Shown here: positions 105-60,464 of the stretch, in pieces
Numbering within the stretch: position 1 is the stretch's first letter
How the letters are laid out: the number at the start of each line of letters is the position of its first letter
Assembly: GCA_965224025.1 (NCBI GenBank)
Contig: OZ245033.1
Coordinates: 448,001-512,000 of the forward strand
Source of the DNA: Candidatus Multivorans sp.
Lineage (GTDB): Bacteria > Acidobacteriota > Thermoanaerobaculia > Multivoradales > Multivoraceae
Length of the DNA stretch: 64,000 nucleotides
Direction: 5' to 3'
Notes under the pieces: generated by a model
Seen by the model: only the letters and a program-made list of their open reading frames with translations
Told to the model about the DNA's origin: nothing
The model's database searches: none
Translations under genes and position numbers: made by a program

Positions 105-772
105 TCAGCAGCCGGCCTTCGCAGCCACCGCTGGCAGTCGCCGCCGGACGGTCCGTCTGAGCCGACCACTCTCTTCGCACAGGATCCGCAAAGTGCCCGA
201 AAACGACTCCTCCAACTCCACGGGCAGCGAAGACTCTAGGCCCCAGAAGAACCGGACAGGCCCGAACTCAGCGTAGTAAGTCACGCGGGCATGTCGAAGG
301 TGTTCCTGCCGACGCCTGACCTGTTCCTCCCAAGCCCCGTTGCACTTACGATCGTCTCCGTGCGACCCGTACCGACTGTACGCGTAGCCTCGGCCACACT
401 CGCTACCTGCATGAAGCCCTGAACCAACTCAGTCCATAGGACCCGCAGAGCGTCTAGCTGGTCCTCGGAAAAACGCTGGCAAGCTGTGAAGCCCTCAACC
501 AACTGAGAGTACTCTGAGCCACCGCCCGCCCCTATCCTGAACTCATCATGTCGCCAGTCCTTAGAACTCAGATCAAGTTGAAGCAGGGTACCGTTCCCCT
601 TCCCCCTCAAGCTCGAACCAGGCAAGAACAGGCACTCTGGATCCACGAAGTGGCACCCAAGTCCGAGTGCTGCCAACGCCGCGATTAGGAACGATGACCA
701 GCGAAACGCAGGTGTTTTGGACAACCTATGATATCCCAGTTGAGGGCGCGCCGCACCGCCGGCAGCCACCAT
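105..772 (-). pseudogene. Putative lipoprotein, probably frameshifted near 300-340
   Basis: ORF 281..772 has a hydrophobic stretch and lipobox-like LGLGC; another frame continues to a TGA at 105 just before the next ATG; lower GC than the rest of the window. Confidence 0.3.
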
Positions 773-13755: not shown

Positions 13756-16116
13756 ATGCCGAAACCAAACCTGGGAACCCGTGTGGCGCGACCTCGCGCC
13801 ACACGCGAACCACTCCGTGCGCCCGTCATCGGGCGCACGGATGGCACGCGGGCATCCTGCCCGCATCCGGCCCAACGGGCCGGTCTGCTTGGCGTTGTCC
13901 CTTCATACCTGCGGACGCCCCTGCGTCTGTTCTGCGCCGCTCTGGCCTGCTCGATCTTCGCTGCCTGCGGCGGCGAGTATCCGCCGCCGCCCTCGACGGA
14001 GCAGATCCCCTTCACCGAGACGATCCACGGGGTCGAGTTCCAGGATCCCTACCGCTGGCTGGAGGACCAGGACAGCCCGGCAACCCGCGCCTTCATCGAC
14101 CGGCAGAACGAGTACGCGGAGCAGATCCTGGGCCAGCCGCCGGAACGCGATTGGGCTCGACGGCGGCTACGCGAACTCATGGGAACGCCGGCCATCGGCT
14201 CGCCCAACAAGGCGGGCGACTACGAGCTCTTCACCCTGCGCCGGGCCGGCGAGGAACTGGCCTCGATCGTTCGCCGTGAGGCGCCGGAGGATGCGCCCGA
14301 GGGTGCACCCGGGCCGATCGACCCGGCGCGCGACTACGAGGTCGTGGTCGACCCGGCGGATCTCGGCGGCGACTACACGCACCTCGACGTCGTGTCCGTT
14401 TCGCCCGACGGGCGGCTCCTGCTCTACAACGTGCGAGTCGGCGGCGAGGACGAGACCACGGCCCGCTTGCGCGACCTCGAGCAGAACGTCGACCTCGACT
14501 TCGAGCTGCCCCGGGCGTTGAACGACCAGGCGTTCTTCGCGAAGGACGGCAGCGGCATCTACTACACGGTCCGCGACCGCAGCGAGGGATCGCGCGTTCG
14601 TTTCCATACCTTCGGCACCGACCGGGCGGACGATGCTCTCGTGTTCGGCGAGGGAATCGGGCCGCGGAGCTTCGTCCGCGCCGAGCAGCTCGACGACGCG
14701 TTGCTGCTCGTCGGCGTTCAACACGGATGGGCCCGTAGCGACCTCCATCTCGTGGAGGTGGGAACCTGGAAGGCGACGCCGCTCGTCACCGACACGGAGG
14801 CGCGCTTCAACACCCACACCGCCGACGGCAGGCTGTTCGTGCGCACGAACCTGGACGCGCCGCTGAACCGGCTGATGGAGGTCGACCTCGACCGGCCGGC
14901 GGTCGCGAGCCCGGGTGGCGCGTTGTCGCGCCACACGCGAACCAGTCCGAGCGCCCGTCATCGGGCGCTCGGATGGAACTGGCGCGAGGTCGTGCCCGAA
15001 GCCGACGACGTGCTGCAAGGCGTCGCCGTCATCGACGGCAAGCTCTACCTGACCTACCTGCACCATGTGGCGAGCCGCATCCGGGTGTTCGAGTTCGACG
15101 GCACGCCGGCCGGCGAGGTCGAAGTGCCCGAACACCACAGCGCCAGCATTCGCGCGGCTGGGGAGGGCAAGGCTCTTCTCTCGCTGGTCTCCTTCCTGCA
15201 GCCGCCCGTGACCTGGCTGCTCGATCTGGAGGCGGGCACGCGCGAAATCTTCCGCGAGCCCCAAGCGCTCTTTTCGGCCGACGGCTACACCGTCCAGCAG
15301 GTGCGCTACACCTCGAAGGACGGCACGTCCGCGCCGATGTACGTCGTCCACCGCGAGGACTTCGAATCCGACGGAAGCGCTCCCGCCCTGCTCAACGGCT
15401 ATGGCGGCTTCAACGTCTCCCTCACCCCGCGTTTCAATCCGCTGGCGGCCCTGTGGATCGAGGCCGGCGGCGTGTACGCCGTCGCCACGCTCCGGGGCGG
15501 CAGCGAGTACGGCGAGGAGTGGCACCAGGGCGGGATGCTCCACAACAAGCAGAACGTCTTCGACGACTTCATCTCGGCCGGCGAATGGCTGATCGCCGAG
15601 GGCTACAGCGACCCCGAGCGCCTGGCGATCCACGGCGCGAGCAACGGCGGACTGCTCGTCGGCGCCTCCTTGACTCAACGCCCCGATCTCTACCGCGCGG
15701 TGCTCTGCGGCTTCCCCGAACTCGACCTGATCCGCTTCTACACCTTCACCGACGCGAACAACATGCCCGCCCTGCTCGAGTACGGCGACGGAGAGATTCC
15801 CGACCAGTTCGAGTCCCTGCGCGGCTTCTCGCCCTATCAGGCGGTCAAGGACGGCGTCGCCTACCCCGCCGTCATGCTGACCCAGGGCGACCGCGACACC
15901 CGGGTGCCGCCGCTCCAGGCGCGCAAGATGGCGGCCCGCCTCCAGGCGGCGACGTCTTCGGGCCTGCCGGTGATCCTGCGCTATCACCCGTACGCCGGGC
16001 ACGCCGCGAGTCGGGGTCTGCCGACGTCGGAGCGGATCGAGTTCGTGGCGGCGGAGGCTGCGTTTCTGTTCACGCAGACGGGGTTGGGGGCGGCAGGGAC
16101 GGCATCGGGTGACTGA
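13756..16116 (+). CDS. Prolyl oligopeptidase (S9A) lipoprotein with in-frame repeat insertions
   Basis: [20 protein letters not shown] (catalytic Ser), DTRV, AGH; lipobox FAAC; start uncertain. Confidence 0.92.
13771..13870 (+). repeat. Family-B double-hairpin element (13779..13844) nested inside a family-A REP
   Basis: ctgggaac + 66-nt element B + cac + gcgggcatcctgcccgcatccgg. Confidence 0.85.
14911..14976 (+). repeat. Family-B double-hairpin element, in frame inside the peptidase gene
   Basis: Aligns end to end with 13779..13844; stems GTGGCGCG/CGCGCCAC and TCCGAGCGCCCG/CGGGCGCTCGGA. Confidence 0.92.
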
Positions 16117-21140: not shown

Positions 21141-21408
21141 GGCGGGCTCCTCAGGAGGTTCGGTGCTCGTGTGTTGGCGGCGGTCGCCGGGCAGCGACTG
21201 AACGTGCCGGTATCCGTAGCCGCTCGTAGGATGGGTTTGTCTTGGGTGTAAGGACGACCGTCGTTGCCGTTTTGTTCCTGTCGGCTGGGGTTGCGCCGGC
21301 GGGGAGCGCGTGCCTGTCCTTCTTCCCGAAACCGGCTAGAGGGGAACCGATGAAGATTGAACATTTCAAGTGCGCGGTCGCCGACCTCGCCGAGGGAAGG
21401 TGGAAGCG

Positions 21409-22158
21409 ATGAAGATTGACCACTTCATGTACGCGGCCGCCGACCTCGACGAAGGAATGGCGTTGGCCGAGGATGTCTTCGGCGTGGCGCCGGCGTTCGG
21501 CGGCGCCCACGAAGGGCTCGGAACGCGCAACGCGTTGCTTGCCTTGCGAGCTGGCGCCGCAGAACGCAGCGAAGCGAGTTCGGGGCGCAAGCTCGCAGGC
21601 GCGGACGGGATGGGCGGAAACACCGAGCCTGCGAGGGGTTTCGGGGCGCTGGGCGACACGTACCTCGAGATCATCGCGCCGGACCCGGCGCAGTCGGTGG
21701 AGAGCCAGATGGTCGAGGGCATGGCCGAGCTGAGTGCCGGGGGGCTGGTGACGTGGGCGGCGCAGGGCGATCTCGTCGTCACGAAGGGCTTGCTCGAGGA
21801 GGCGGGGATCTCGTCGGCCGGCCCGGTGGAAACGCGGCGGCGCACGGCCGACGGCGAGCTGCTGGTGTGGGATCTGCTGTTTCCGCAAGGTAGCGGCTAC
21901 GGGATGCCCTTCTTCATCGACTGGCGGGAGTCTCCCCACCCGGCCACGACGACGCCGGTGGGCGGGGAGTTGCGGTCGTTCGGGATCTCGACGCCGGACG
22001 CCGAACAGCTTGACGCGGTGTTGGCGAGTCTTGGGCTGGGCGTGGAGGTGTCGGATGGGGAGCCGGTGATGCGGGTCGTGATCGAGGGGGCGAAGGGTCC
22101 GGTGGAGTTGGTTTCTACGGAGGAGAGTCGGGGGCTGCAGCCATCGTCAAGGCGTTGA
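21409..22158 (+). CDS. VOC/glyoxalase-like family protein with a 35-aa in-frame insertion
   Basis: IDHFMYA, GGAHEGLGTRNALL, YLEIIAPDP, MPFFIDW, HPA. Confidence 0.88.
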   Translation: MKIDHFMYAAADLDEGMALAEDVFGVAPAFGGAHEGLGTRNALLALRAGAAERSEASSGRKLAGADGMGGNTEPARGFGALGDTYLEIIAPDPAQSVESQMVEGMAELSAGGLVTWAAQGDLVVTKGLLEEAGISSAGPVETRRRTADGELLVWDLLFPQGSGYGMPFFIDWRESPHPATTTPVGGELRSFGISTPDAEQLDAVLASLGLGVEVSDGEPVMRVVIEGAKGPVELVSTEESRGLQPSSRR

Positions 22159-41159: not shown

Positions 41160-42725
<1,566 letters not shown>

Positions 42726-42785
42726 ACGCAGGCCCTCCCTGTTCTACGCCGTGGACGGAAGGGTCATCTTAGCGCCCGCGCGGCG

Positions 42786-44126
42786 TCACGCCGCCTCCCA
42801 CAACCTTCGAACCGGCACGGCGTACATGCCATGCCCGAAACCCGTACTTGCCTCGCCGTCATAGAGCACGACTCCGCGGACGAAGCGCTTGCCCGCTGCC
42901 CTGGCCAGCTTGCGCAGGCCACTGAAGTCCGCGTGCGTGACGGTGGCTGCGGCCTTGATCTCCACTCCGGCAATGAACCGGGCGCCGCGCTCGATCACGA
43001 GGTCCACTTCCGCGCCGTCCTTGTCGCGGAAGTGGTGGAACCTCATGGACGCGTCGTGCCAACTTGCCTGGCGCCGCAGTTCCTGGAACACGAAGGTCTC
43101 CAGAAGCCGTCCGAGCAAGGAACGGTCGCCGGCGAGCGCCGGGGCGTCCACGCCCAGCAGCGCGGCGGCAAGGCCGGTATCGCCGACGTGCAGCTTGGGC
43201 GTCTTGATCAACCGGCTCAGGCGGTTGCTGTGCCAGGGCTGGAGTCGTTCCAGCAGGAAGAGCCTCTCCAGGAGCGCGACGTAGTCGCCGATCGTGGGCC
43301 GGCTCAGGTTGAAGGGCGAGGCCAGACTGGTGAGGTTGAAGAGTCTGGCGGTCTGTGAAGCAGTGGCACTCAGGAGAGCGGGCAGGATGTCGAACGATCG
43401 GATTCGTGTCATGTCGCGGACGTCGCGCTGGATTTGCGTTTCAACGTAGTTGCGATGCCATTCGGCCTGGCGTTCGGCGGTTGGACGCAGGAGCGCCGCG
43501 GGGAATCCGCCCGCGACGATCCGGTCAATGAGCCGCTTGCCGAGCCGCTCGGTTCGACGCACCGGGAATCCCTCTCCGAACAGGGCGCTCAGGAATCCGG
43601 TGCTGGAGTAGGAATCGCCGCGTACGGCCGGGTCGGCCAGTTCGTACTGCGCCAGCGGATGCAGCGGCACGATCTGCAGGCGACCCGCCAGGGATTCGGA
43701 CAGCGCCGGGAGGAGCAGCACGTTGGTGGAACCGGTGAGTACGAAGCGGCCGGGCGCCCGGCGTCGGTCGACCTCCATCTTGAGCGCTTCGAACAGGCTC
43801 GGAACGTGCTGGACTTCGTCCAGGATGACTCGTTCGGGCAGGTCCGCGACGAAGCCCGCGGGATCGGCCCTGGCGCCCTCTCTGGCGACCGCGTCGTCGA
43901 AGCTGATGTAGGCGTAGTCCCGGTGGCTTGGCCCCCGCGTTGGCCGGATGCCGCTCCAGGCTGCGGAGTCGCCGCCCCAGGTCAAGCGGTGCGAAGCGCA
44001 GGCGTATTGGGCGAGGGTCGTCTTGCCGCACTGCCGCGGACCGTGGATGAGCACGACCGGCGAGTCTTCCAGCGCTTCGGCCAAGCGCTCCTCGGCGCTG
44101 CGTGGATAGAAGATCGGCGTCGGCAT
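42786..44126 (-). CDS. AAA+ ATPase with wHTH and C-terminal DUF4143 PD-(D/E)xK nuclease-like domain (COG1373 type)
   Basis: GPRQCGKTT, ILDEVQ, LTGS, GGFP, KTPKLH, EVDLVIE...GVEIK; start re-called at ATG 44126. Confidence 0.9.
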   Translation of the reverse strand: MPTPIFYPRSAEERLAEALEDSPVVLIHGPRQCGKTTLAQYACASHRLTWGGDSAAWSGIRPTRGPSHRDYAYISFDDAVAREGARADPAGFVADLPERVILDEVQHVPSLFEALKMEVDRRRAPGRFVLTGSTNVLLLPALSESLAGRLQIVPLHPLAQYELADPAVRGDSYSSTGFLSALFGEGFPVRRTERLGKRLIDRIVAGGFPAALLRPTAERQAEWHRNYVETQIQRDVRDMTRIRSFDILPALLSATASQTARLFNLTSLASPFNLSRPTIGDYVALLERLFLLERLQPWHSNRLSRLIKTPKLHVGDTGLAAALLGVDAPALAGDRSLLGRLLETFVFQELRRQASWHDASMRFHHFRDKDGAEVDLVIERGARFIAGVEIKAAATVTHADFSGLRKLARAAGKRFVRGVVLYDGEASTGFGHGMYAVPVRRLWEAA

Positions 44127-44230
44127 TCGGCCGATCGTAACGTTGATGGTCGACTGATTGCAAGGTTGAGGCTCGGCCAATCGAAAGCTTGGGGTTCGGC
44201 CAATCGTAAGGTTGAGCGTCGGCCAATCGC
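44127..44230. repeat. Tandem 23-nt direct repeats (about 4.5 copies)
   Basis: Units start at 44127, 44150, 44173, 44196 and 44219; consensus TCGGCCAATCGTAAGGTTGAnnn. Confidence 0.92.
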
Positions 44231-44259
44231 AGATCTCTCGATTCCGGAGACCCGATCCC

Positions 44260-47200
44260 TCAGGGCGGACTCCAGAGCCAGTCCAAGTCGGAGAAGGCAA
44301 GTTCCGGGCCGAAGTTCTCGATGTTGTCTTCGACGTTCAGGATCAGGCACCTCTCGGTACCGCCGTTCTTTGGCCCTCGCAAGCCGCGGCCGATCATCTG
44401 GAAGTAAAGATTCGGGCTGTAGACCGGGCGGGCAACGAGGATCGCGCGCGTCTTCGGCGCGTCGAAGCCTTCGCGGAACACGCCGTAGTTCACGAGTGCC
44501 CGAAGGGCCCCGCTGCGGAACTCCTCCACGACCTGGCGGCGAGTCGCGGTGTCGGTTTCTCCGCTGACCGCGCGGGACGGAATGCCCTGACACTCGAGGA
44601 GCGCGGCGAGGGTCTTCGCGTGTTCAACGGATGTGGCGAAGACGAGGGTTGGCCAGTCGCGTTCGATGTGCTTCTCGAACGCGCCAAGGATCCGCTTGGT
44701 GCGGGCGGTGCTGCCGGCGATGCGGTCTTCCACCGCTCTGGGAAGCCAGGGCAGGTTCCACCGCTCGCCGTTCCATCCCTCCCGGCGCATGGGCCGGAGG
44801 TCGTCGTCGCGCAAATGGAAGGTGTCGCCCCGGATCACGCCGTGGTCCACCTGAGAGAGGATTCCCATTTCCTGCAGGTGCTGAACGACGGCGGGCGGGT
44901 CGTCCATCGGGAACGCCCCGTTGTCAAGTCGTCGTTTCCCGTAGCGATTGACCAGCCTGGCCGTCTCCTCTTCGTCTCTCCCGCGGTAGGGCGTGGCGGT
45001 GAGGCCGACCAGGAACGGCTCGTCAGGCTTCGGGTAGCGGGTCAGGCCCGTCTCCTCCATCACGGACGTGTAGGTCGGGGCGATGGACCGATGCGCTTCG
45101 TCGAAGACGACGAGTTGAAGATCGGCCAGGAATGCGTAGTCAGGGTGCCCGAGCCGTGCCCGCAGCGTCTGGATTGAAGCGACCACGACGTGCCGCTTGG
45201 TCAACGGACGAGGACTTTCCTGACCGGCCCACGCTCTGGAGATGCGCAGACGCTCGCCGGAGTCGCCGACGCTCGCCCACACTTGCCGCCACGCCTCGAC
45301 AGCTTGCTCGCAAAGCTCGTCGCGGTCGGCGACCCAGAGCACTCCGCCGGGGAAGTCGCCTTCCCGTGTCGCTTCGACAATCGCCTGCACCGCAACCCGC
45401 GTCTTCCCGGCGCCGGTCGGCAGACTGATCATGGCCCGGCGTTCGCCTCCCGCAGCCGATTCGCCTCCCAGCAATGCCTGAAGATTCTCAGCGACCCGTT
45501 CCTGGTAGTCGTGCAGCGGAGGGAGCTTCTCAGGACCCCGAACTTCCAGCCAGGGGTCCCGCTTGGGGGTTCGCTTGCCGGCCCAGTCGTCGGCGAAACC
45601 GAGAGCCTGGACGAAAGCGATTGCCCGTGATGAACCGGCCCACTGTTTCGGGGGATCGAGGTCGTGCAGTGCTTCACGGTGCCGCCGCAGTGCGTCCGTA
45701 TGCCAGGTCGCGATGGCCGCCTCGGCGAGTCTCTTGCCGCCGAGTTCCTTGCCGTCGACTTCAAGCATGGCGAGCAGCATGTCGGGGAGTTGGTTGCGTA
45801 GAGCCTGTTCGCCGACAGCGGCCAGCAACCGATCTGCGGCCGACGACTTCTGGCGGATCGCGTCGCGGCGGGCTTGGACCTCCCTGGGCGTCCTCCGGTC
45901 GAGGATCTGCTGGAGCGTGTCTTCGGTGAGGTCTAGCTCCAGCTCCCTGGAGACCAGCCGCAGTTGCTTTTCCTCCTCCGCTACGGAGTCCGCGAGGTAG
46001 GCGTTCAAGTGCCTGGCTCTGCAGTCCACGTCTCGACCCGCGACCAGGATCCGCTTGCAGCGGATCAGCAGGCAATCCGACCTGTCCGCCGGCAGTACCG
46101 CGCCGAGACCCGGCCAGACGTCGGTCAGGAAGACGGGCTCCGCTTCTCCGATGAACTCCGGTCTCGGGTCCGTCAGGTCGAAGGCATCGCGGATCGACTC
46201 CCAGTTCTCGTGCCGATAGAGGACATCGGCTTCGCCGTTCTTCGGAGGTTGGCCGTGCGCGTCGCCGAACGAGACAATGCCGGCTGGTGTTCTGATCCGC
46301 CCGTGCTTCATCAGCGTGGGAACCGCCAAGGACCTGAAGCGAGCCGACGGGTATGCCTGACCGTTCGTGCCGCTATGGCCCATCGACCAGTGGGTGAACG
46401 TTGCCTCGAGTTCAAGGAGCTCGTCGGTGTAGGCCAACCGTCCCTCGTCGGAGAGCCTCGCGAGTACGTCGAGCGGGCCCGCCCCCTTGGCCGATCCGAC
46501 GAAGTCTCCGTCGCCGGACCAGTGTCCGAAGCGGAGGTAGCCATGCTGGGGGGTATGCGGAAGGTCATCCCGTTGCCGGTACTTCGCCTCGCACTCTCGC
46601 CGGAAGACCTCGAAGTCGACAGCGAACGAGAGGTTCCAGCCGGGTGCAGGGCGATCGGTGGTGCCCAATTCCTTTAGCAGGTCGAGGTCCCGGCGGTGGA
46701 CGTCTCGTCAATTGTCGCCTCTCCGTCCCTGCTCCCGTCGGATGGCACGATGGGCCCCGGAAACAGCACGGAAGCGAGCGGCTGCCAAGCGTCGGCGAGG
46801 GTTCGCGCCTTGACGCGGTAAGGCAACACGCCAGGGTGGTTCGCTATCTCGGCGGCGATGTCGAATGCCCTGCTTGCGTCGAGTCTTCGAGCAGCAGCCC
46901 AGAACGCATCCCAAGCGTCCTCTGCGGGTTTGGTCTGGCGGCTTCCCAGTCCTACCCGTCGAGCGGCGCGCCTGAAGGTGGCTTCGGGGCTTGGCGTTCG
47001 GAGGCCCAGCGCCTGGAGGACCTTCCTCGTTGGCGGGTCCTGGGCGAGTCGACGATGAACCGTCGATGCCTCTTCCCCATCGACCGCGGCCGCTTCGGCG
47101 GGAAGAAAGACCGAGTCGGCGTCGACCGGCTTCCACTCGTTGGCCTCGGTCAGAACGATGTTGCCCAGGTTCGTCCCTTGGCGCACCGCTTCGGGAATGG

Positions 47201-48846
47201 CCTACGCCGTGCGTAGGGCGGCCCTCGATGCGGCGACTGCCTGCTCGCCCGAACTGCCTTCGACCAGGGCTTCCAGCCACTCCTGCAGAGAGGCGCGGGG
47301 GGCTGGCTGTCGGTAGTAGTTGCCCGGAAACAGGCGGTCGATCCGGGAGAGCCGCTCGCGGGTCAGCGCCGAGTGGCTAAGCCAGTTCGTTGGCCGGCCC
47401 TCGTATGCCGCCCACCGTTTGAAAGGGGCCTCGTCCGTTTGAAAGGGGCCTCGTCGATCCGGTTGCCGGATGTGAGTTCACTGGGCGGATAGCGAAGCGC
47501 GTCAGGTACCTGGACGTCACCGTTCTGGTCGGGCACGATCGGGCGTCGCGACAGATGGCCGAACAGTTCGCGCCGCAGGAGCGCTGCCTGGTCCGTGTCG
47601 CCGGCTTCGTGTCGGCGCGGCAGAACGTCGAGGTGGCGGGCCGGATCGTCCTCGGCCCGGAGCCCGGCGATCTCTTCGGCAACCACCTTCGCCGCAGCCG
47701 GATGATCTCGTCGTTGTAGGGGCCCGACAGCAGATTCTGGCGGTCCTCGTTCGTCTTCCACGGCGCGTTCAGGATGCCGCCGACGAGACTCGCCGTCCGG
47801 GTAGGAAAGTAGGCCCAGAAGTGCCCTACGTCTCGGCTAACGTCGAGCGACGCTGCCCACGTGATCGGAACCTCGTTGCTGTCATCAAGCGAACGGCGGT
47901 CGCTGCGGGCACTCACGGAGAGCGTGTGCATCGTCTGGAAGATGCGCCATCGGCTGGTTTGTTCCGTTACCTGCGAGACGTCCGCCTTGAGCAGTTCGAA
48001 CACCGCGTCCGACTGTTGACGAAGCGTGTAGCGGCTTATGGACTGGCCATCGTCGAGGTGCAACTCCCGGACATGATGGACGAGGAGCAGGAACTCCGCC
48101 GGGAAGTCCCTGATCTGCTGTCTGAGAGCCCCCACTCCTCGCTCCAGGAGCGGCAGGCGTACGATGTTCGTCGCCCAACTCATCAGTTCCCCGAGCGTGC
48201 CGTCCTCGTCCTCGGCGCGACACGGGTCGAGCGATTCGGGCAGCCGAAGAACCGGATAGTCCCGGAACTCGCGCCCGGTTGCCGCCTCGATCACCTGCCT
48301 CGCGTGTTCTCGGCCAAACCGGAACGAAACGGAGCGGCTGTAGAACTCTGGGGCATCGGTGACGCCGAGCACCGACTTGAACCCGAGCCCAAACCTGCCG
48401 ATCGCCGCCGTGTCCCTCTTGCTTGACAAGTGGGCAAACATGAGGGCCGTGATTCCGCTCTCATCAACCGGCAGGCCGTCGTCCGCGCAGTAGAGGTTGT
48501 CTCCAGACAATCTGATGCTGATCCTGCGGCGGCCGCTCTCGGCTTGAAGCAGGGCGTCTGCGCTGTTCTGCACGAGCTCGATGATCTGCCGGTCCGCGTA
48601 GCCGCCGCGGGCGGTGTCGTGTTCCTGGTTTACGTGTTCGTACACGAGGTTTGGTTGGTTCCCGTAGGAGGCCAGGGTGCCTTTCGTCTCCCGCCGAATG
48701 AAGTCGGCAAGTGGGCTCTCTGGACCTGCCCAGGCTTCGCGACCATGATGGACGCTGGGACTCCCAGCTTCAATGGCGTTCCTCAAGGGGCTCTCCTGGC
48801 CTTCCGGGCGCGGGCTTTCCGCGTTGGTCTCTGACCCTGATCTCAC
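44260..48846 (-). pseudogene. Sacsin-like GHKL ATPase fused to an SF2 DEAD/DEAH helicase, multiply frameshifted
   Basis: N-terminal ELVQNSADA, DDG and IGRFGLGFKSV; C-terminal PTGAGKT, DEAH, LTAT and QMIGRGLRG; breaks near 47700, 47430, 47200 and 46680. Confidence 0.82.
47415..47454. repeat. Perfect 20-bp tandem duplication
   Basis: ccgtttgaaaggggcctcgt x2. Confidence 0.95.
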
Positions 48847-48917
48847 TACAGATTCGAACGATTGATGCCCGTGGCCGCGTGCTCCCACCGGGCCCGGGAG
48901 GTGTCTTGACTTCTCGA

Positions 48918-49940
48918 TCAGACGACGATCCGCGCCACCCGCTCCACGAACCAGAACGCCGCGATGATTCCAGTCGCGTAAATCGGCGTACGCAGGACGA
49001 GCTCCGGCACGACGATCCCTACCCGGTTGACGGCCGCCACCAGTGCCAGCACGACCGCGACGACCAGGAGTTGTCCCACCTCGACCCCGACGTTGAACAG
49101 GAACAGGGCCATCGCGATCGCCCGCTGCGGCAGGCCGATTTCGGCCAGAGCGCCGGCGAAGCCGAAGCCGTGCAGCAGGCCGAAGGCGAACGCGATAAGC
49201 CAGGGGCTCTTCGTCGTGATCGGCGATCGCTGGTCCTCGGGCCGCAGCAGCTCGACCGCCAGGAACAGGATGGACAGGGCGATGACCGCCTCGACGGGCG
49301 CCGAGGACAGCTTGACGACATCGAGGGATGACAAGGCAAGCGTGATGCTGTGGGCAAGCGTGAAAGAGGTGATCACGCCGACCAGGCGCCACGGACTGCG
49401 GACGTAGAAGAGCAGTCCGATCACGAACAGGATGTGGTCGAAGCCGAACAGCAGATGCTCGACGCCGAGCCGGAAGTAGGGCGCGGCGTTCCCCGCCGCC
49501 TCTCGGTCGACGGTGTACGAGGGCGCCTCCGGGCGCAGCAGTTGGGTCAGGCTGTCGCCACCTGTGAAGCTGATGCGGAGCAGGACGTCGGTGAGCGTCC
49601 GTTCGAGCCCCTGGATGGCGAAGATGTCGCCGTGGAACGTGCGCTCCGGGTCGGTGTCCGGCGCCTCGCACTCGACCGTCCAGCGTTCGACCAGGGCGCC
49701 GGCGAGGTTCTCGGGCGGCTGCCGGGCGGTCTCGGTGCAATAGTCCGGGAGGATCGGGTCGAGCAGCAGCAGGAGCGCGCCGCGCCGCGGCTGCTTCCAG
49801 ACGACCTCGAAGCGGCCGGTCTCGACCTCGATCAGCTCCAGGTAGCCGGGGCGGACCTCGTGGCCGCCGGCGGGGGCGGCGGCGAAGAGCCCGACCAGGA
49901 TCGCCGCCGCCGGCAGCCCGTGCAGGCAGCGCCGTGTCAG
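48918..49940 (-). CDS. HupE/UreJ family membrane protein (probable CTG start)
   Basis: Open frame from a CTG overlapping the upstream TGA; signal peptide, HEVRPGYLEL, GVEHLLFGFDH, FTLAHSITL, FGLLHGFGFA. Confidence 0.88.
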   Translation of the reverse strand: MTRRCLHGLPAAAILVGLFAAAPAGGHEVRPGYLELIEVETGRFEVVWKQPRRGALLLLLDPILPDYCTETARQPPENLAGALVERWTVECEAPDTDPERTFHGDIFAIQGLERTLTDVLLRISFTGGDSLTQLLRPEAPSYTVDREAAGNAAPYFRLGVEHLLFGFDHILFVIGLLFYVRSPWRLVGVITSFTLAHSITLALSSLDVVKLSSAPVEAVIALSILFLAVELLRPEDQRSPITTKSPWLIAFAFGLLHGFGFAGALAEIGLPQRAIAMALFLFNVGVEVGQLLVVAVVLALVAAVNRVGIVVPELVLRTPIYATGIIAAFWFVERVARIVV

Positions 49941-58745: not shown

Positions 58746-60464
58746 GTGGCTAGCGCGGACGAGAGCGCCCGGAGCGGCGGAGCAGACGACAGGAAGGATC
58801 AGGCTGCCGCCAAGGCTCGCCCGCTCGAGGCCGAACAGGCTGCGGCGAAGAAGGCTGCGGCCGAAGCGAGGCGCAAGGCGGCTGCAGCCGAGCGCGCGGC
58901 GAAGTCCGCTGCCGAGAAGAAGGCGGCGGCTCAGCAGGCCGCTCGGGCGGAGAGATCGTCGTCGGCCGCCGCCGCCAGAGCGGAAAAGGTCGCCGAGACC
59001 AGGAAGGCGGCTGCCGCGGCTGCCGTCAAGGCCGCGACGGAACGCCGCGCTGCCGTGAGGAAGGCGAAGAGAGCGGTTGCAGCGGGAAACACGGCCGCGG
59101 AGAAGGCAGCCGCCGCCGCCGCCGCGCGTAAGTCGGCCGCGCAGCAGGCTGCGAAGGACGAGAAGACCACGGCCGCGCTGGTTCTGAGGGCTGAGCAGGA
59201 GGCCGAGGCGCGGAGGGCGGCGCAGGACGAGGCGGTCAAGAAGGCTGCCGAGTTGTCGCGTTTGGCGAAGGCGGCGGCCGGGCGCCTGCGTACCGCGGAA
59301 ACGACCGCGAAGCGAGCGGATCGTGAGGCCGCTGCCAAGGCCGCGGCCGCTGCCAAGGCCGCTCTGGAGGCTGCCGAGAGCAGAGCGGCGCTCGAGGAAG
59401 CCCGGAGCACCGAAGCTGCGGAGCGTGAAGCCGCCGACACCGCCATGACCGCCGCGGTGGAGGAGAAGGAGGCGGCGAAAATTGCGACTCGTGACGCCGC
59501 TGCCTGCAGGTCCGCGGCGGTGCGAGCAGAACGCAAGGCCGTCAGCACCTCCGAGCTCGCAGCCAAGGGACGGAAGGAAGCCACCGCCCGGAAGAAGGAA
59601 GCCGCGCAGTCGGCGAGACTTGCCGTGAGGACGGGCGCCGCTGCCGAGAAGGCCGCGAAGTTGGCGGCCGACCGCAAGGCGGCGGCTCAGGCGGCGGCCA
59701 AGGACTCCGCGGCAAAGGGAGTCGTGGCGCGCAAGGCCGCACGCACTGCGGCGGCCCGCGCAGGGGCGCTGCAGAAGGCGACCAAGGCCGCGGCCGCGGC
59801 CAAGGTCGCGGCCCGAGAGGCTCAGCGGGCTGCCGCGGCCGCCGAGAAGCGGGTGGCCAAGGCCCGGGCGGCGGAGGAAGCCGAGGCGAAGAGGCCTGAG
59901 GTGGAGGCAGCCGCCGCAGCGGAAACCGCCGTCAGGGAGGCTGCCGAACGGGAAGCCGCGCGGCGGCTCGCGGCCAAGCAACGGCTGGCCAGGAAAAAGG
60001 CGGCTCAGAAGAAAGCGCCTCCGAGGAAAGCGCCGACGCTGCTCCTCAGGCCGCAGCGCACGGGCGACGGCCGGGGGAACAACTCTCTTCTCAAGAGCGC
60101 CGACATCGACATGGAGTTGGTGCGGGAGCGGCTGGAGGAGAAGCGGCGGGAGCTGTTCGGTCGCTACAACCGTGACCTCCATGCCGGCCTGAAGGCGTCG
60201 TCGGGCGAAGGGTCGGAGGATCTCGTCGACCGGGCGAACCACGCCTACAGCCGGGAGTTGAACTTCTCACTGTCGGACAGCGACGGCATTCTGCTCAAGC
60301 GGATCGACGAGGCGACGATCCGTCTCGACGACGGCAGCTTCGGGGTCTGCGTCCACTGCCACGCTGAAGTCGGCCGCGCCCGCCTCGAAGCGGTGCCCTG
60401 GGCCTCCTATTGCATCAACTGCCAGGAACTCGAGGAGAAGGGTCGGCTTCCGAGAGAAGAGTGA
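58746..60464 (+). CDS. dksA: DksA/TraR C4 zinc-finger protein with a long Ala/Lys-rich N-terminal extension
   Basis: EDLVDRA coiled-coil tip, CVHC...RLEAVPWASYCINC; GAGG RBS before GTG 58746. Confidence 0.82.
   Translation: MASADESARSGGADDRKDQAAAKARPLEAEQAAAKKAAAEARRKAAAAERAAKSAAEKKAAAQQAARAERSSSAAAARAEKVAETRKAAAAAAVKAATERRAAVRKAKRAVAAGNTAAEKAAAAAAARKSAAQQAAKDEKTTAALVLRAEQEAEARRAAQDEAVKKAAELSRLAKAAAGRLRTAETTAKRADREAAAKAAAAAKAALEAAESRAALEEARSTEAAEREAADTAMTAAVEEKEAAKIATRDAAACRSAAVRAERKAVSTSELAAKGRKEATARKKEAAQSARLAVRTGAAAEKAAKLAADRKAAAQAAAKDSAAKGVVARKAARTAAARAGALQKATKAAAAAKVAAREAQRAAAAAEKRVAKARAAEEAEAKRPEVEAAAAAETAVREAAEREAARRLAAKQRLARKKAAQKKAPPRKAPTLLLRPQRTGDGRGNNSLLKSADIDMELVRERLEEKRRELFGRYNRDLHAGLKASSGEGSEDLVDRANHAYSRELNFSLSDSDGILLKRIDEATIRLDDGSFGVCVHCHAEVGRARLEAVPWASYCINCQELEEKGRLPREE

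Follow-up and report, generated by a model that had tools for sequence, protein, structure and literature searches.

A phased array of 13-bp boxes merged with a predicted leaderless promoter is the putative operator of a PDC-S01 ATPase-nuclease gene

Results

A box array adjoins the PDC-S01 gene

The window, which is the whole 64,000-nt stretch of Candidatus Multivorans sp. DNA analysed here (contig OZ245033.1, positions 448,001 to 512,000), holds a PDC-S01 gene on the minus strand whose start codon is closely preceded by an array of short direct boxes. The features of the locus, all on the minus strand, are the following.

41160..42725, minus strand: abgT-family transporter gene, a neighbour and the conserved downstream anchor of the variable site
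42786..44126, minus strand: PDC-S01 gene, 446 aa, AAA_14 plus winged helix plus DUF4143 (Pfam, PADLOC, structure model)
44128..44232, minus strand: array of five direct 13-bp boxes with a 23-bp period, predicted operator (sequence and conservation in homologues)
44134..44139, minus strand: predicted -10 hexamer TACGAT, in the last box and 7 nt ahead of the ATG (sequence and homologues)
44158..44163, minus strand: predicted -35 hexamer TTGCAA, at the start of the penultimate box (sequence and homologues)
44260..48790 (start approximate), minus strand: frameshifted gene for a sacsin-type ATPase and SF2 helicase, a neighbour outside the unit that lies between the array and hupE/ureJ

The boxes occupy 44220-44232, 44197-44209, 44174-44186, 44151-44163 and 44128-44140 on the minus strand, the last ending 1 nt short of the ATG (44126) of the intact gene, and share the consensus TT[T/G/A]CAATYRGMCG with a nearly invariant core, TTnC-N5-GnCG. 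The repeat sequence, coordinates and 23-nt spacing given in a preliminary description of this DNA were all recovered on re-checking, and TRF returned a period of 23 with 4.5 copies over 44127-44229, 75% matches and zero indels. What had been called a 23-nt tandem repeat keeps its period but not its unit, which is a 13-bp box followed by a nearly free 10-bp linker. A two-box pattern matched four times in the window, every time inside the array, and in none of 100 shuffles; a genome-wide pattern search found it nowhere else in the source genome. The array is reproduced letter for letter in short-read contigs (two runs of one sample, possibly the source sample), and the breaks in the helicase gene are also present in short-read contigs.

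The array is conserved in close homologues

The preliminary description had proposed a repeat search upstream of homologues, and periodic boxes were present upstream of the gene in all of the close homologues. At least two boxes precede the gene in 100/100 non-redundant close homologues from 13 phyla and at least three in 98, and in 91 of the 100 the array ends 0-3 nt from the start codon; control sequences never rose above two boxes. Boxes are spaced by 23 in 230 of the 264 gaps and by 22 in another 33; linkers are 9-10 nt long and unique in 256 of 264 cases. Judged by this conservation, the array belongs to the protein clade, which has Desulfosarcina variabilis and Acidithiobacillus ferrivorans as cultured carriers. 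A pattern search in an acidobacterial class other than that of the source found arrays in 8 of 157 genomes, and among nine same-pattern loci inspected in that class the gene lay directly downstream in seven, with no gene in two. Viral occurrences amount to one locus in IMG/VR and six distant phage records.

A Thermus homologue from an HB27-derived pTT27 record is apparently 5'-truncated and shows no array by eye, and the Thermus case is for this reason not used as evidence. PMC4406477 gives Thermus TT_P0211 as 6.6-fold up with plasmid plus Argonaute.

A predicted promoter is built into the last two boxes

Read along the minus strand, TTGCAA (44163-44158) is followed by an 18-nt spacer, TACGAT (44139-44134), 7 nt and the ATG at 44126. 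This geometry recurs in homologues: the predicted -35 is TTGCAA or TTTCAA in 61/91 with a spacer of 17-18 nt in 90/91, and the predicted -10 is TACAAT, TACGAT, TACACT or TACATT in 80/91, lying 6-8 nt ahead of the start codon in 90/91. Position 3 of the box depends on rank, with A in 88/91 last boxes, which produces the -10, and G or T in 90/91 penultimate boxes, which produces the -35. The TTGCAA unit, singled out earlier as the most divergent copy, is the usual form of the penultimate box rather than a decayed repeat. Nothing like a Shine-Dalgarno sequence precedes the ATG, as had been noted, and 0/91 homologues carry such a motif. A leaderless sigma70-type arrangement, with the -10 at 6-8 nt from the start, the -35 at 16-18 nt and no Shine-Dalgarno, is present in 91/100 homologues; the nine exceptions mostly retain a -10-like hexamer in register despite a decayed last box. 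By consensus the promoter is weak, with 8 of 12 matches against a scanner threshold of 9, so that no promoter was called at the site. The leaderless promoter proposed in the preliminary description thus holds as a prediction from geometry conserved in homologues, with a consensus score below threshold, and the PDC-S01 transcript would be leaderless, starting at 44126-44127. Given that the distance from -35 to -10 matches the 23-bp period, one series of boxes could double as binding sites and promoter hexamers.

The same geometry bears on the proposal, which we regard as highly improbable, that transcription of the array yields a repeat RNA that controls the protein, either as a guide or in the manner of a type III antitoxin. 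Repeats ahead of a nuclease gene would be explained, TACGAT occurs in box 2 as well, transcripts of the upstream gene might run on into the array and 13/100 arrays fold with z < -2. However, with the conserved -10 in the last box the predicted start site lies downstream of the array, a terminator was not called, and Rfam gave no match in 42500-49200 beyond one chance match. Nor is there excess folding: the window array has a z of -1.6, equalled by 12/200 shuffles, and the mean z over arrays is -0.49 in sense and -0.51 in antisense. A fixed 22-23-bp period with free linkers fits instead a constraint on the face of the DNA. In type III TA loci an array of ~34-57-nt repeats is transcribed ahead of the toxin gene, and the present locus resembles them in having a repeat array upstream of a nuclease gene. 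It departs from them in its period of 23, the conserved -10 in its last box and the lack of a terminator and of structured RNA, and Pfam found no toxin of the ToxN, CptN or TenpN families in the locus; the type III TA comparison made earlier was given up on these grounds.

The protein is a predicted STAND-like ATPase fused to a nuclease domain

The earlier identification as an AAA-ATPase/DUF4143 nuclease is supported: the protein combines AAA_14 with DUF4143, its ATPase and PD-(D/E)xK residues are intact, and PADLOC matched it with PDLC04790 at 1e-150 and with six further PDC-S01 models. The AAA+/STAND-like ATPase domain has Walker A (G29-T36), Walker B (D103-E104) and R149, and is followed by a helical domain with GGFP, a winged helix at ~245-314 and the PD-(D/E)xK-type residues E343, D375, E389 and K391. 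Catalytic residues are kept in at least 90% of 144 divergent homologues, and G207 and P209 are conserved. An insert at ~45-70 is lineage-specific and of low confidence in the structure model.

An earlier model, from 30 close sequences, was poor over residues 218-310, whereas that from 144 sequences is confident (pLDDT 92.5) and predicts the ATPase-helical-winged-helix fold of SSO1545/PAB2304, STAND proteins and origin-binding Orc1. Residues 1-325 matched best to SSO1545 (2fna) and PAB2304 (2qen), with Z of 15.9 and 15.8, rmsd of 4.5 and 4.2 and ~255 aligned residues; the top matches also include NLRs, Avs5 and Orc1, with 2qby at Foldseek rank 2. A P-loop domain, a GxP helical domain and a winged helix are the features of STAND/Orc1-like NTPases, and the protein has all three. 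In contrast to SSO1545, PAB2304, Avs5, CED-4 and plant NLRs, which share the fold of residues 1-325, the window protein ends in a DUF4143 nuclease, lacks a TPR, WD40 or LRR sensor and has 446 aa; we know of no cognate DNA repeat for any of them. A sequence search found no full-length relative among solved structures, and the fold search barely tested the nuclease domain, so its assignment rests on Pfam, the conserved residues and PMC3424549.

PMC12988326 and PMC3424549 describe the PDC-S01-type protein as an ATPase fused to a PD-(D/E)xK domain, and the former ranks PDC-S01 fourth in frequency among defence annotations across prokaryotes, one survey giving ~39,000 detections. It is thus a very common candidate anti-phage family with a predicted defence role. 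Like PADLOC PDC-S01 (COG1373), the present locus consists of a single gene with the domain pair AAA_14 and DUF4143. The protein family is already catalogued; we found no description of an upstream array, promoter or autoregulation of PDC-S01 in the literature covered, mostly openly accessible main texts without supplements, and to that extent the cis-element is not described in print.

Neighbours vary and give no support for a joint system

The neighbour previously described as a helicase does have a helicase part, but it is the last piece of the frameshifted sacsin-type ATPase-helicase gene and not a whole gene. A joint system with the helicase is unsupported because neighbours are not conserved and genus relatives G050, G052, G013 and G057 hold the array and gene without the helicase gene.

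By our reading of annotations, 14 of 71 neighbours are of defence or TA type, which bears on the idea that the array is a holding and assembly site and a sensor, such that a phage DNA mimic, titration or loss of the array would free or activate the nuclease in abortive infection or addiction, with autorepression secondary. It would be in keeping with a protein that joins a STAND-like fold to an effector and lacks C-terminal sensor repeats, with the conserved catalytic residues and with the occurrence of the family embedded in defence systems (10.1101/2024.01.29.577857). We nonetheless consider it quite unlikely, as promoter geometry alone explains the position of the array, the gene has been lost repeatedly with the array left behind in genus genomes, and in one phage test, against T4, T5 and T7, the protective systems did not include the PDC-S01 representative (10.1101/2024.09.26.614923).

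Other system types also fit poorly. The iteron reading raised in the preliminary description finds no Rep family by Pfam, a locus on a 5.0-Mb contig and no plasmid record with at least 60% identity. CRISPR arrays have repeats with unique ~25-45-nt spacers and cas genes nearby; here linkers are 9-10 nt, no CRISPR Rfam family matched and no cas family occurs among the 71 neighbours. Elements of the IS21/Tn7 type have a DDE transposase and end repeats in inverted orientation; the neighbours include no DDE partner, bracketing arrays (below) are direct and the window has none downstream.

Box variation and the winged helix

Other clades pair other boxes with other recognition helices, a covariation that at clade level is inseparable from shared descent. 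The helix types that differ between clades include SRPTIRDY, DGKTVDRW and KPETAAGY. A direct or inverted repeat lies upstream of 41/60 distant homologues, against 11/60 coding controls. Variation in the 5' half of the box correlates best with residues 255-278 (partial r 0.20), a value reached by 0/150 synonymous-site nulls in helix windows and by 2/150 in any window. With all box positions used, however, window 306-317 comes first and no recognition-helix window ranks above 28th. Residue 266, which is S or A, and box position 6 are concordant in 89/101 cases, although eight independent pairs divide into ~4 for, 0 against and 4 uninformative (median p 0.125, not significant). The earlier suggestion that repeat sequence tracks wHTH sequence is thus favoured by the 5'-half correlation but not by the all-position ranking or the independent pairs, and we regard such tracking as suggestive and not significant. 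The winged helix of STAND proteins is usually a means of oligomerisation and not of reading sequence.

Downstream arrays and the question of mobility

In one Longimicrobiales clade 22/25 genes have arrays in direct orientation on both sides, with as many as 14 combinations of flanks; the second array is promoter-less and ~1.28 kb downstream. Its boxes have T at position 3 in 64/66 cases and are kept at 83% identity compared with 27-28% for the flanks. Retention of a promoter-less array while its linkers diverge suggests that the box works apart from the promoter. This arrangement resembles lac O2/O3 and lambda OL/OR, the auxiliary operators of autorepressors, except that here the boxes are direct and not palindromic and the putative repressor is an ATPase-nuclease.

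Bracketing also raises the possibility, which we consider unlikely, that the boxes serve in addition as ends or loading sites for a one-gene element that moves itself, its protein binding the element's own arrays, cutting close to them and promoting its excision, its insertion or allele replacement. Gene-less twin arrays in L330 and L344, and an internal deletion in L340 that retains both arrays, would agree with this. However, downstream arrays occur in only 5/94 non-redundant homologues and not in the window, and for bracketed elements only distant relatives were found and no clean empty site.

Within the genus 20/42 genomes contain the two-box pattern (control pattern 0). Every locus inspected lay at the gene, at a fragment of it or at a junction that holds the gene in relatives, a distribution which is not that of a host regulator's site. 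Over 30 genomes the window's junction changes state 14 times (10 gene, 7 orphan array, 13 empty), a near-identical tract shared by G000 and G016 begins near the -35 box and ends ~30 nt short of the stop codon, and a duplicated site in G067 carries the array in opposite orientations, all of which would favour a self-moving element. Against it, G052 is a mosaic whose crossover falls within the gene, a pattern of ordinary homologous recombination that also weakens precise transfer of a unit at the window's site; the genus search found one copy of the clade per genome; flanking direct repeats are present in 8/78 loci and vary in length and position; and the 71 neighbours include no integrase or recombinase, save one weak IS200-type match.

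One linker is common to genus orphan arrays and G067, but orphan arrays as a separate mobile mini-element were rejected, the pattern being found in only 1/301 genomes of the phylum of G067, namely G067 itself, and orphan-array identity roughly tracking abgT identity. We treat the orphan arrays of the genus as deletion remnants.

Discussion

The repeats are most likely the docking site of the adjoining ATPase-nuclease, lying inside that gene's promoter. The phased binding platform proposed in the preliminary description is in this sense upheld as a prediction, by the conserved array, the promoter geometry, the clade-specific boxes and recognition helices and the covariation of the box 5' half with residues 255-278. 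With a probability of roughly 70%, we infer that the protein binds the boxes cooperatively, through oligomerisation, and represses its own leaderless transcript. On this reading the PDC-S01 protein would have the array as its cognate operator, and this operator would be merged with the leaderless sigma70-type promoter of the gene. Protomers would sit head to tail on the direct boxes through the winged helix, one per box, and their STAND/Orc1-like ATPase domains would make binding cooperative over three to five boxes, covering the -35, the -10 and the start site. Such negative feedback would keep a latent nuclease scarce and docked, on a stand-alone gene that probably moves horizontally; for the nuclease target, foreign DNA in defence is our default guess.

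Rep proteins of plasmids bind phased direct repeats, the iterons, and autorepress, as is proposed here, and Orc1/Cdc6 on origin boxes similarly combines AAA+ with a winged helix. The present case differs from both in being a chromosomal accessory gene, patchy in the genus, with an array merged with its own promoter and a nuclease fused to the ATPase.

A clade-specific DNA site at a fixed position offers a substrate for binding, structure and nuclease assays on PDC-S01, and the position of the array predicts a leaderless, autoregulated PDC-S01 transcript. In heterologous tests of PDC-S01 the native array should be kept or deliberately removed. Because downstream arrays are retained, the choice between looping and self-mobility becomes directly accessible to experiment. 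There is a small chance that PDC-S01 polymerises on its clade-specific array, represses itself, uses the arrays, which some lineages have at both ends, to cut or synapse its own locus and moves or replaces itself without a recombinase; if true, this self-mobility would make it a new class of one-gene selfish element and not a phage-defence system. If only autoregulation holds, the mechanism would be an ordinary one and the array a useful handle on the family.

A repeat array abuts the P0001 gene

P0001, the 446-residue product of the window's PDC-S01 gene, matches AAA_14, DUF4143 and the PADLOC PDC-S01 model (1e-150), and a counterpart 98% identical to it occurs in a Ca. Multivorans genome (an acidobacterial genus). 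In the structure model (pLDDT 92.5) the ATPase is followed by a helical domain, then by a winged helix built of helices 245-257, 265-272 and 276-288 plus the wing, and last by a C-terminal alpha/beta domain; Walker A/B, R149, GGxP, E343, D375, E389 and K391 are retained by at least 90% of 144 homologues. A fold search with residues 1-325 returned PAB2304 (Z 15.9, rmsd 4.5) and SSO1545 (Z 15.8, rmsd 4.2) as best matches, aligned over about 255 residues, with NLRs, Avs5 and Orc1 ranking after them. An insert of ~23 aa directly after Walker A (residues about 45-70, window about 43920-43990), modelled with low confidence, is found in the P0001 sublineage and missing from most homologues. The family numbers 17,782 representatives at E 1e-10, with about 18 copies in the window's genome (tblastn). 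DUF4143 is tabulated as a PD-(D/E)xK family of unknown function (PMC3424549), and PDC systems appear as untested candidates in the available text of 10.1101/2024.01.29.577857. In that of 10.1101/2024.09.26.614923, one PDC-S01 representative is not among the systems protecting E. coli B against T4, T5 or T7, and the available portion of a BREX preprint holds nothing on the family.

Reading of the window sequence confirmed the repeat reported in the preliminary description, which comprises five direct boxes just before the start codon.

44220-44232, minus strand, box 1, 13 bp
44197-44209, minus strand, box 2, 13 bp
44174-44186, minus strand, box 3, 13 bp
44151-44163, minus strand, box 4, 13 bp
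44128-44140, minus strand, box 5, 13 bp
44126, minus strand, P0001 start codon ATG

TRF reports 44127-44229 with a period of 23 and 4.5 copies, and a two-box pattern matches four times in the 64-kb window, always within the array, and never in 100 shuffles. Over 43896-48960 the window is identical to short-read contigs of a single sample, possibly the source sample, that was sequenced in two runs. Elsewhere in the window, the top TRF score belongs to a 59-nt tandem duplication (21343-21457), and short in-frame-length repeats of periods 6-27 cluster at 58829-60034 (TRF), probably an Ala/Lys-rich coding region.

The array accompanies the protein clade and contains a predicted promoter

The box consensus was read by eye from 59 loci, to which 81 loci retrieved later by protein and 16 from relatives were added. 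Of 155 loci examined, 18 without an in-frame Walker A and one with too short upstream DNA were dropped, and the resulting 136 gave 100 non-redundant homologues once those above 90% identity were discarded. Periodic repeats had been anticipated upstream of DUF4143/AAA_14 homologues, and all 100 of these close homologues carry at least two boxes there (at least three in 98), whereas controls reached two boxes in 3/100 (in-gene) and 9/100 (opposite-strand) and three boxes never. The gaps are 23 (n=230), 22 (n=33) or 21 (n=1), and the last box ends 0-3 nt ahead of the start codon in 91 homologues. Array and protein clade go together, and the 42 named array loci cover 12 phyla in addition to the window's own.

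Upstream of the window's ATG, TTGCAA and TACGAT are 18 nt apart, and 7 nt separate TACGAT from the start codon. Among the 91 homologues, box position 3 is A in 88 last boxes, where the -10 hexamers include TACAAT (38), TACGAT (24), TACACT (11) and TACATT (7), and G or T in 90 penultimate boxes (TTGCAA 35, TTTCAA 26); it is T in 75/90 third boxes. Both the -35/-10 spacer (17-18 nt) and the distance from the -10 end to the start codon (6-8 nt) hold in 90/91, with an SD-like motif in 0/91, and in most of the nine exceptions a -10-like hexamer is still in register though the last box has decayed. A consensus scanner made no call at the window site, so that support for the promoter there comes from conservation; these rank-dependent hexamers and spacings support the earlier suggestion of a leaderless promoter within the array. 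The array would then sit upstream of the transcript, which, together with its lack of a terminator (by scan), an Rfam match or excess folding, argues against the repeat RNA that had been put forward as an alternative.

Candidate determinants of box recognition

The two-box pattern is present in 20/42 genus genomes (control pattern, 0), and each of the 22 pattern loci inspected coincides with the gene, with fragments of it or with a junction occupied by the gene in relatives, a distribution unlike that of a host regulon. In other clades, DGKTVDRW-type helices go with ATTCCGAATCAGACG every 22 bp, an NHVTTQKY helix with TTTCAATTGGTCG every 22 bp and a KPETAAGY helix with TCCGTTTCACCCGCT every 23 bp; more distant clades have palindromes upstream. 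A direct or inverted repeat beat all 20 shuffles in 41/60 distant homologues, some of them kin, versus 11/60 coding controls.

Across 115 clade loci, and with the rest of the protein allowed for, variation in the box 5' half, one of three box subsets tried, correlates best with residues 255-278 (r 0.20), a value reached by synonymous-site nulls in 0/150 cases in helix windows and 2/150 in any window. Neither the full box nor the 3' half singled out the helix. Residue 266 (Ala versus Ser/Thr) pairs with box position 6 (T versus A) in 89/101 loci, but eight independent pairs gave about four for and none against (median p 0.125). Support for the proposal that the repeat tracks the winged helix is suggestive only.

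Several paralogues in the window's genome (G000) have repeats of their own. At L090 (C1, about 2891545-2891700) seven TCCGTTTCACCCGCT units of 23 bp abut the ATG of a PDC-S01 paralogue, an array type kept in several genus relatives; at L091 (C1, about 958700-958810) four GAAATCTCGGA units spaced at about 22-23 bp precede another; and several among L092-L102 have inverted repeats across apparent leaderless promoters.

Arrays downstream of the gene

No downstream array is present at the window's gene. A second array lies beyond the stop codon in 5/94 homologues, all Gemmatimonadota records, and a pattern search of 251 genomes from the order of G067 (Longimicrobiales) gave matches in 38. We examined 34 loci (27 new, 7 earlier; full gene in 28, downstream sequence in 27), of which 23/27 are bracketed by arrays. 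A single well-supported clade contributes 22 of these out of its 25 genes, with as many as 14 different combinations of flanks (short flanks may overcount); all six clade members retrieved by protein search are bracketed. The distance from the ATG to the first downstream box is 1279-1283 nt in 17/23 and one period shorter in three. Downstream boxes have T at position 3 in 64/66 and hence no promoter hexamers, and all six invariant bases are intact in 38/44. Among the 195 most divergent pairs, boxes are 83% identical, a figure inflated by pattern-based retrieval, compared with 57% for fourfold sites, 34% for linkers and 27-28% for flanks; a decaying relic does not account for this pattern. We prefer to read the downstream array as a putative auxiliary (looping) operator; its rival would make it the end of an element. 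At L348 and L350 two box pairs, separated by about 100-120 nt of AT-rich DNA, both lie upstream of the gene or gene start.

Turnover and neighbourhood

Among the best 30 of 42 genus genomes, the hupE/ureJ-abgT junction holds the gene in 10, an orphan array in 7 and neither in 13, with 14 state changes on the abgT tree. The orphan arrays have two or three boxes and lack the -10 box; we take them for deletion products, since some are joined to gene remnants. Between G000 and G016 the gene is 98% and abgT 94% identical, and G052 is a mosaic with its crossover within the gene. Junction alleles are exchanged, in a pattern that fits ordinary recombination at a hotspot. Gene-less twin arrays, variable repeats flanking 8/78 loci and a duplicated site where the array is inverted leave a self-mobile gene as a less probable alternative.

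Arrays that lack the gene, twin or single, occur at L330/L351, L344 and L339; L340 has an internal deletion with both arrays kept, and L330 resembles a mosaic of two downstream-type arrays. In G067, one copy of a 10-kb segmental duplication (L200:4264-4304 versus 14242-15609) has array-gene-array and the other the inverted orphan array, which shares an identical linker with the orphan arrays of the window's genus. Host-sequence duplications flank the gene in L007, L025 and L031 and measure 49, 167 and 341 bp, respectively; by our reading of the sequence the first is a tRNA-like 3' end and the last resembles the 5' part of hsdM.

Among 71 adjacent ORFs at 42 loci, picked by a codon score, 14 are defence or TA-type, as assigned by reading of matches, and many others housekeeping; no family was seen more than four times and no integrase was found. 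Gene neighbours are not conserved. The sacsin-helicase gene upstream of the array, frameshifted in the window, is absent from G050, G052, G013 and G057, genomes that all keep array and gene, and with the variable neighbours this speaks against the helicase as a system partner. That gene (44260-48790, minus strand) encodes a sacsin-type ATPase and SF2 helicase in several broken frames, the breaks being the same in short-read contigs; its N-terminus matches Tiamat TmtA models, and a perfect 20-nt duplication lies at 47415-47455.

Proposed mechanism

We consider it most likely, with a probability of roughly 0.7, that P0001 binds the boxes head to tail, oligomerises through its ATPase domains and masks its promoter, keeping down the leaderless mRNA from which it is made. 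Binding and repression are inferred, as is the nuclease target. Repression would hold the nuclease scarce on a gene that spreads horizontally. We found no description of the repeats in the literature searched, whose coverage is incomplete. The array is real, and what is new is a predicted cis-regulatory element attached to the already known, unexplained PDC-S01 family.
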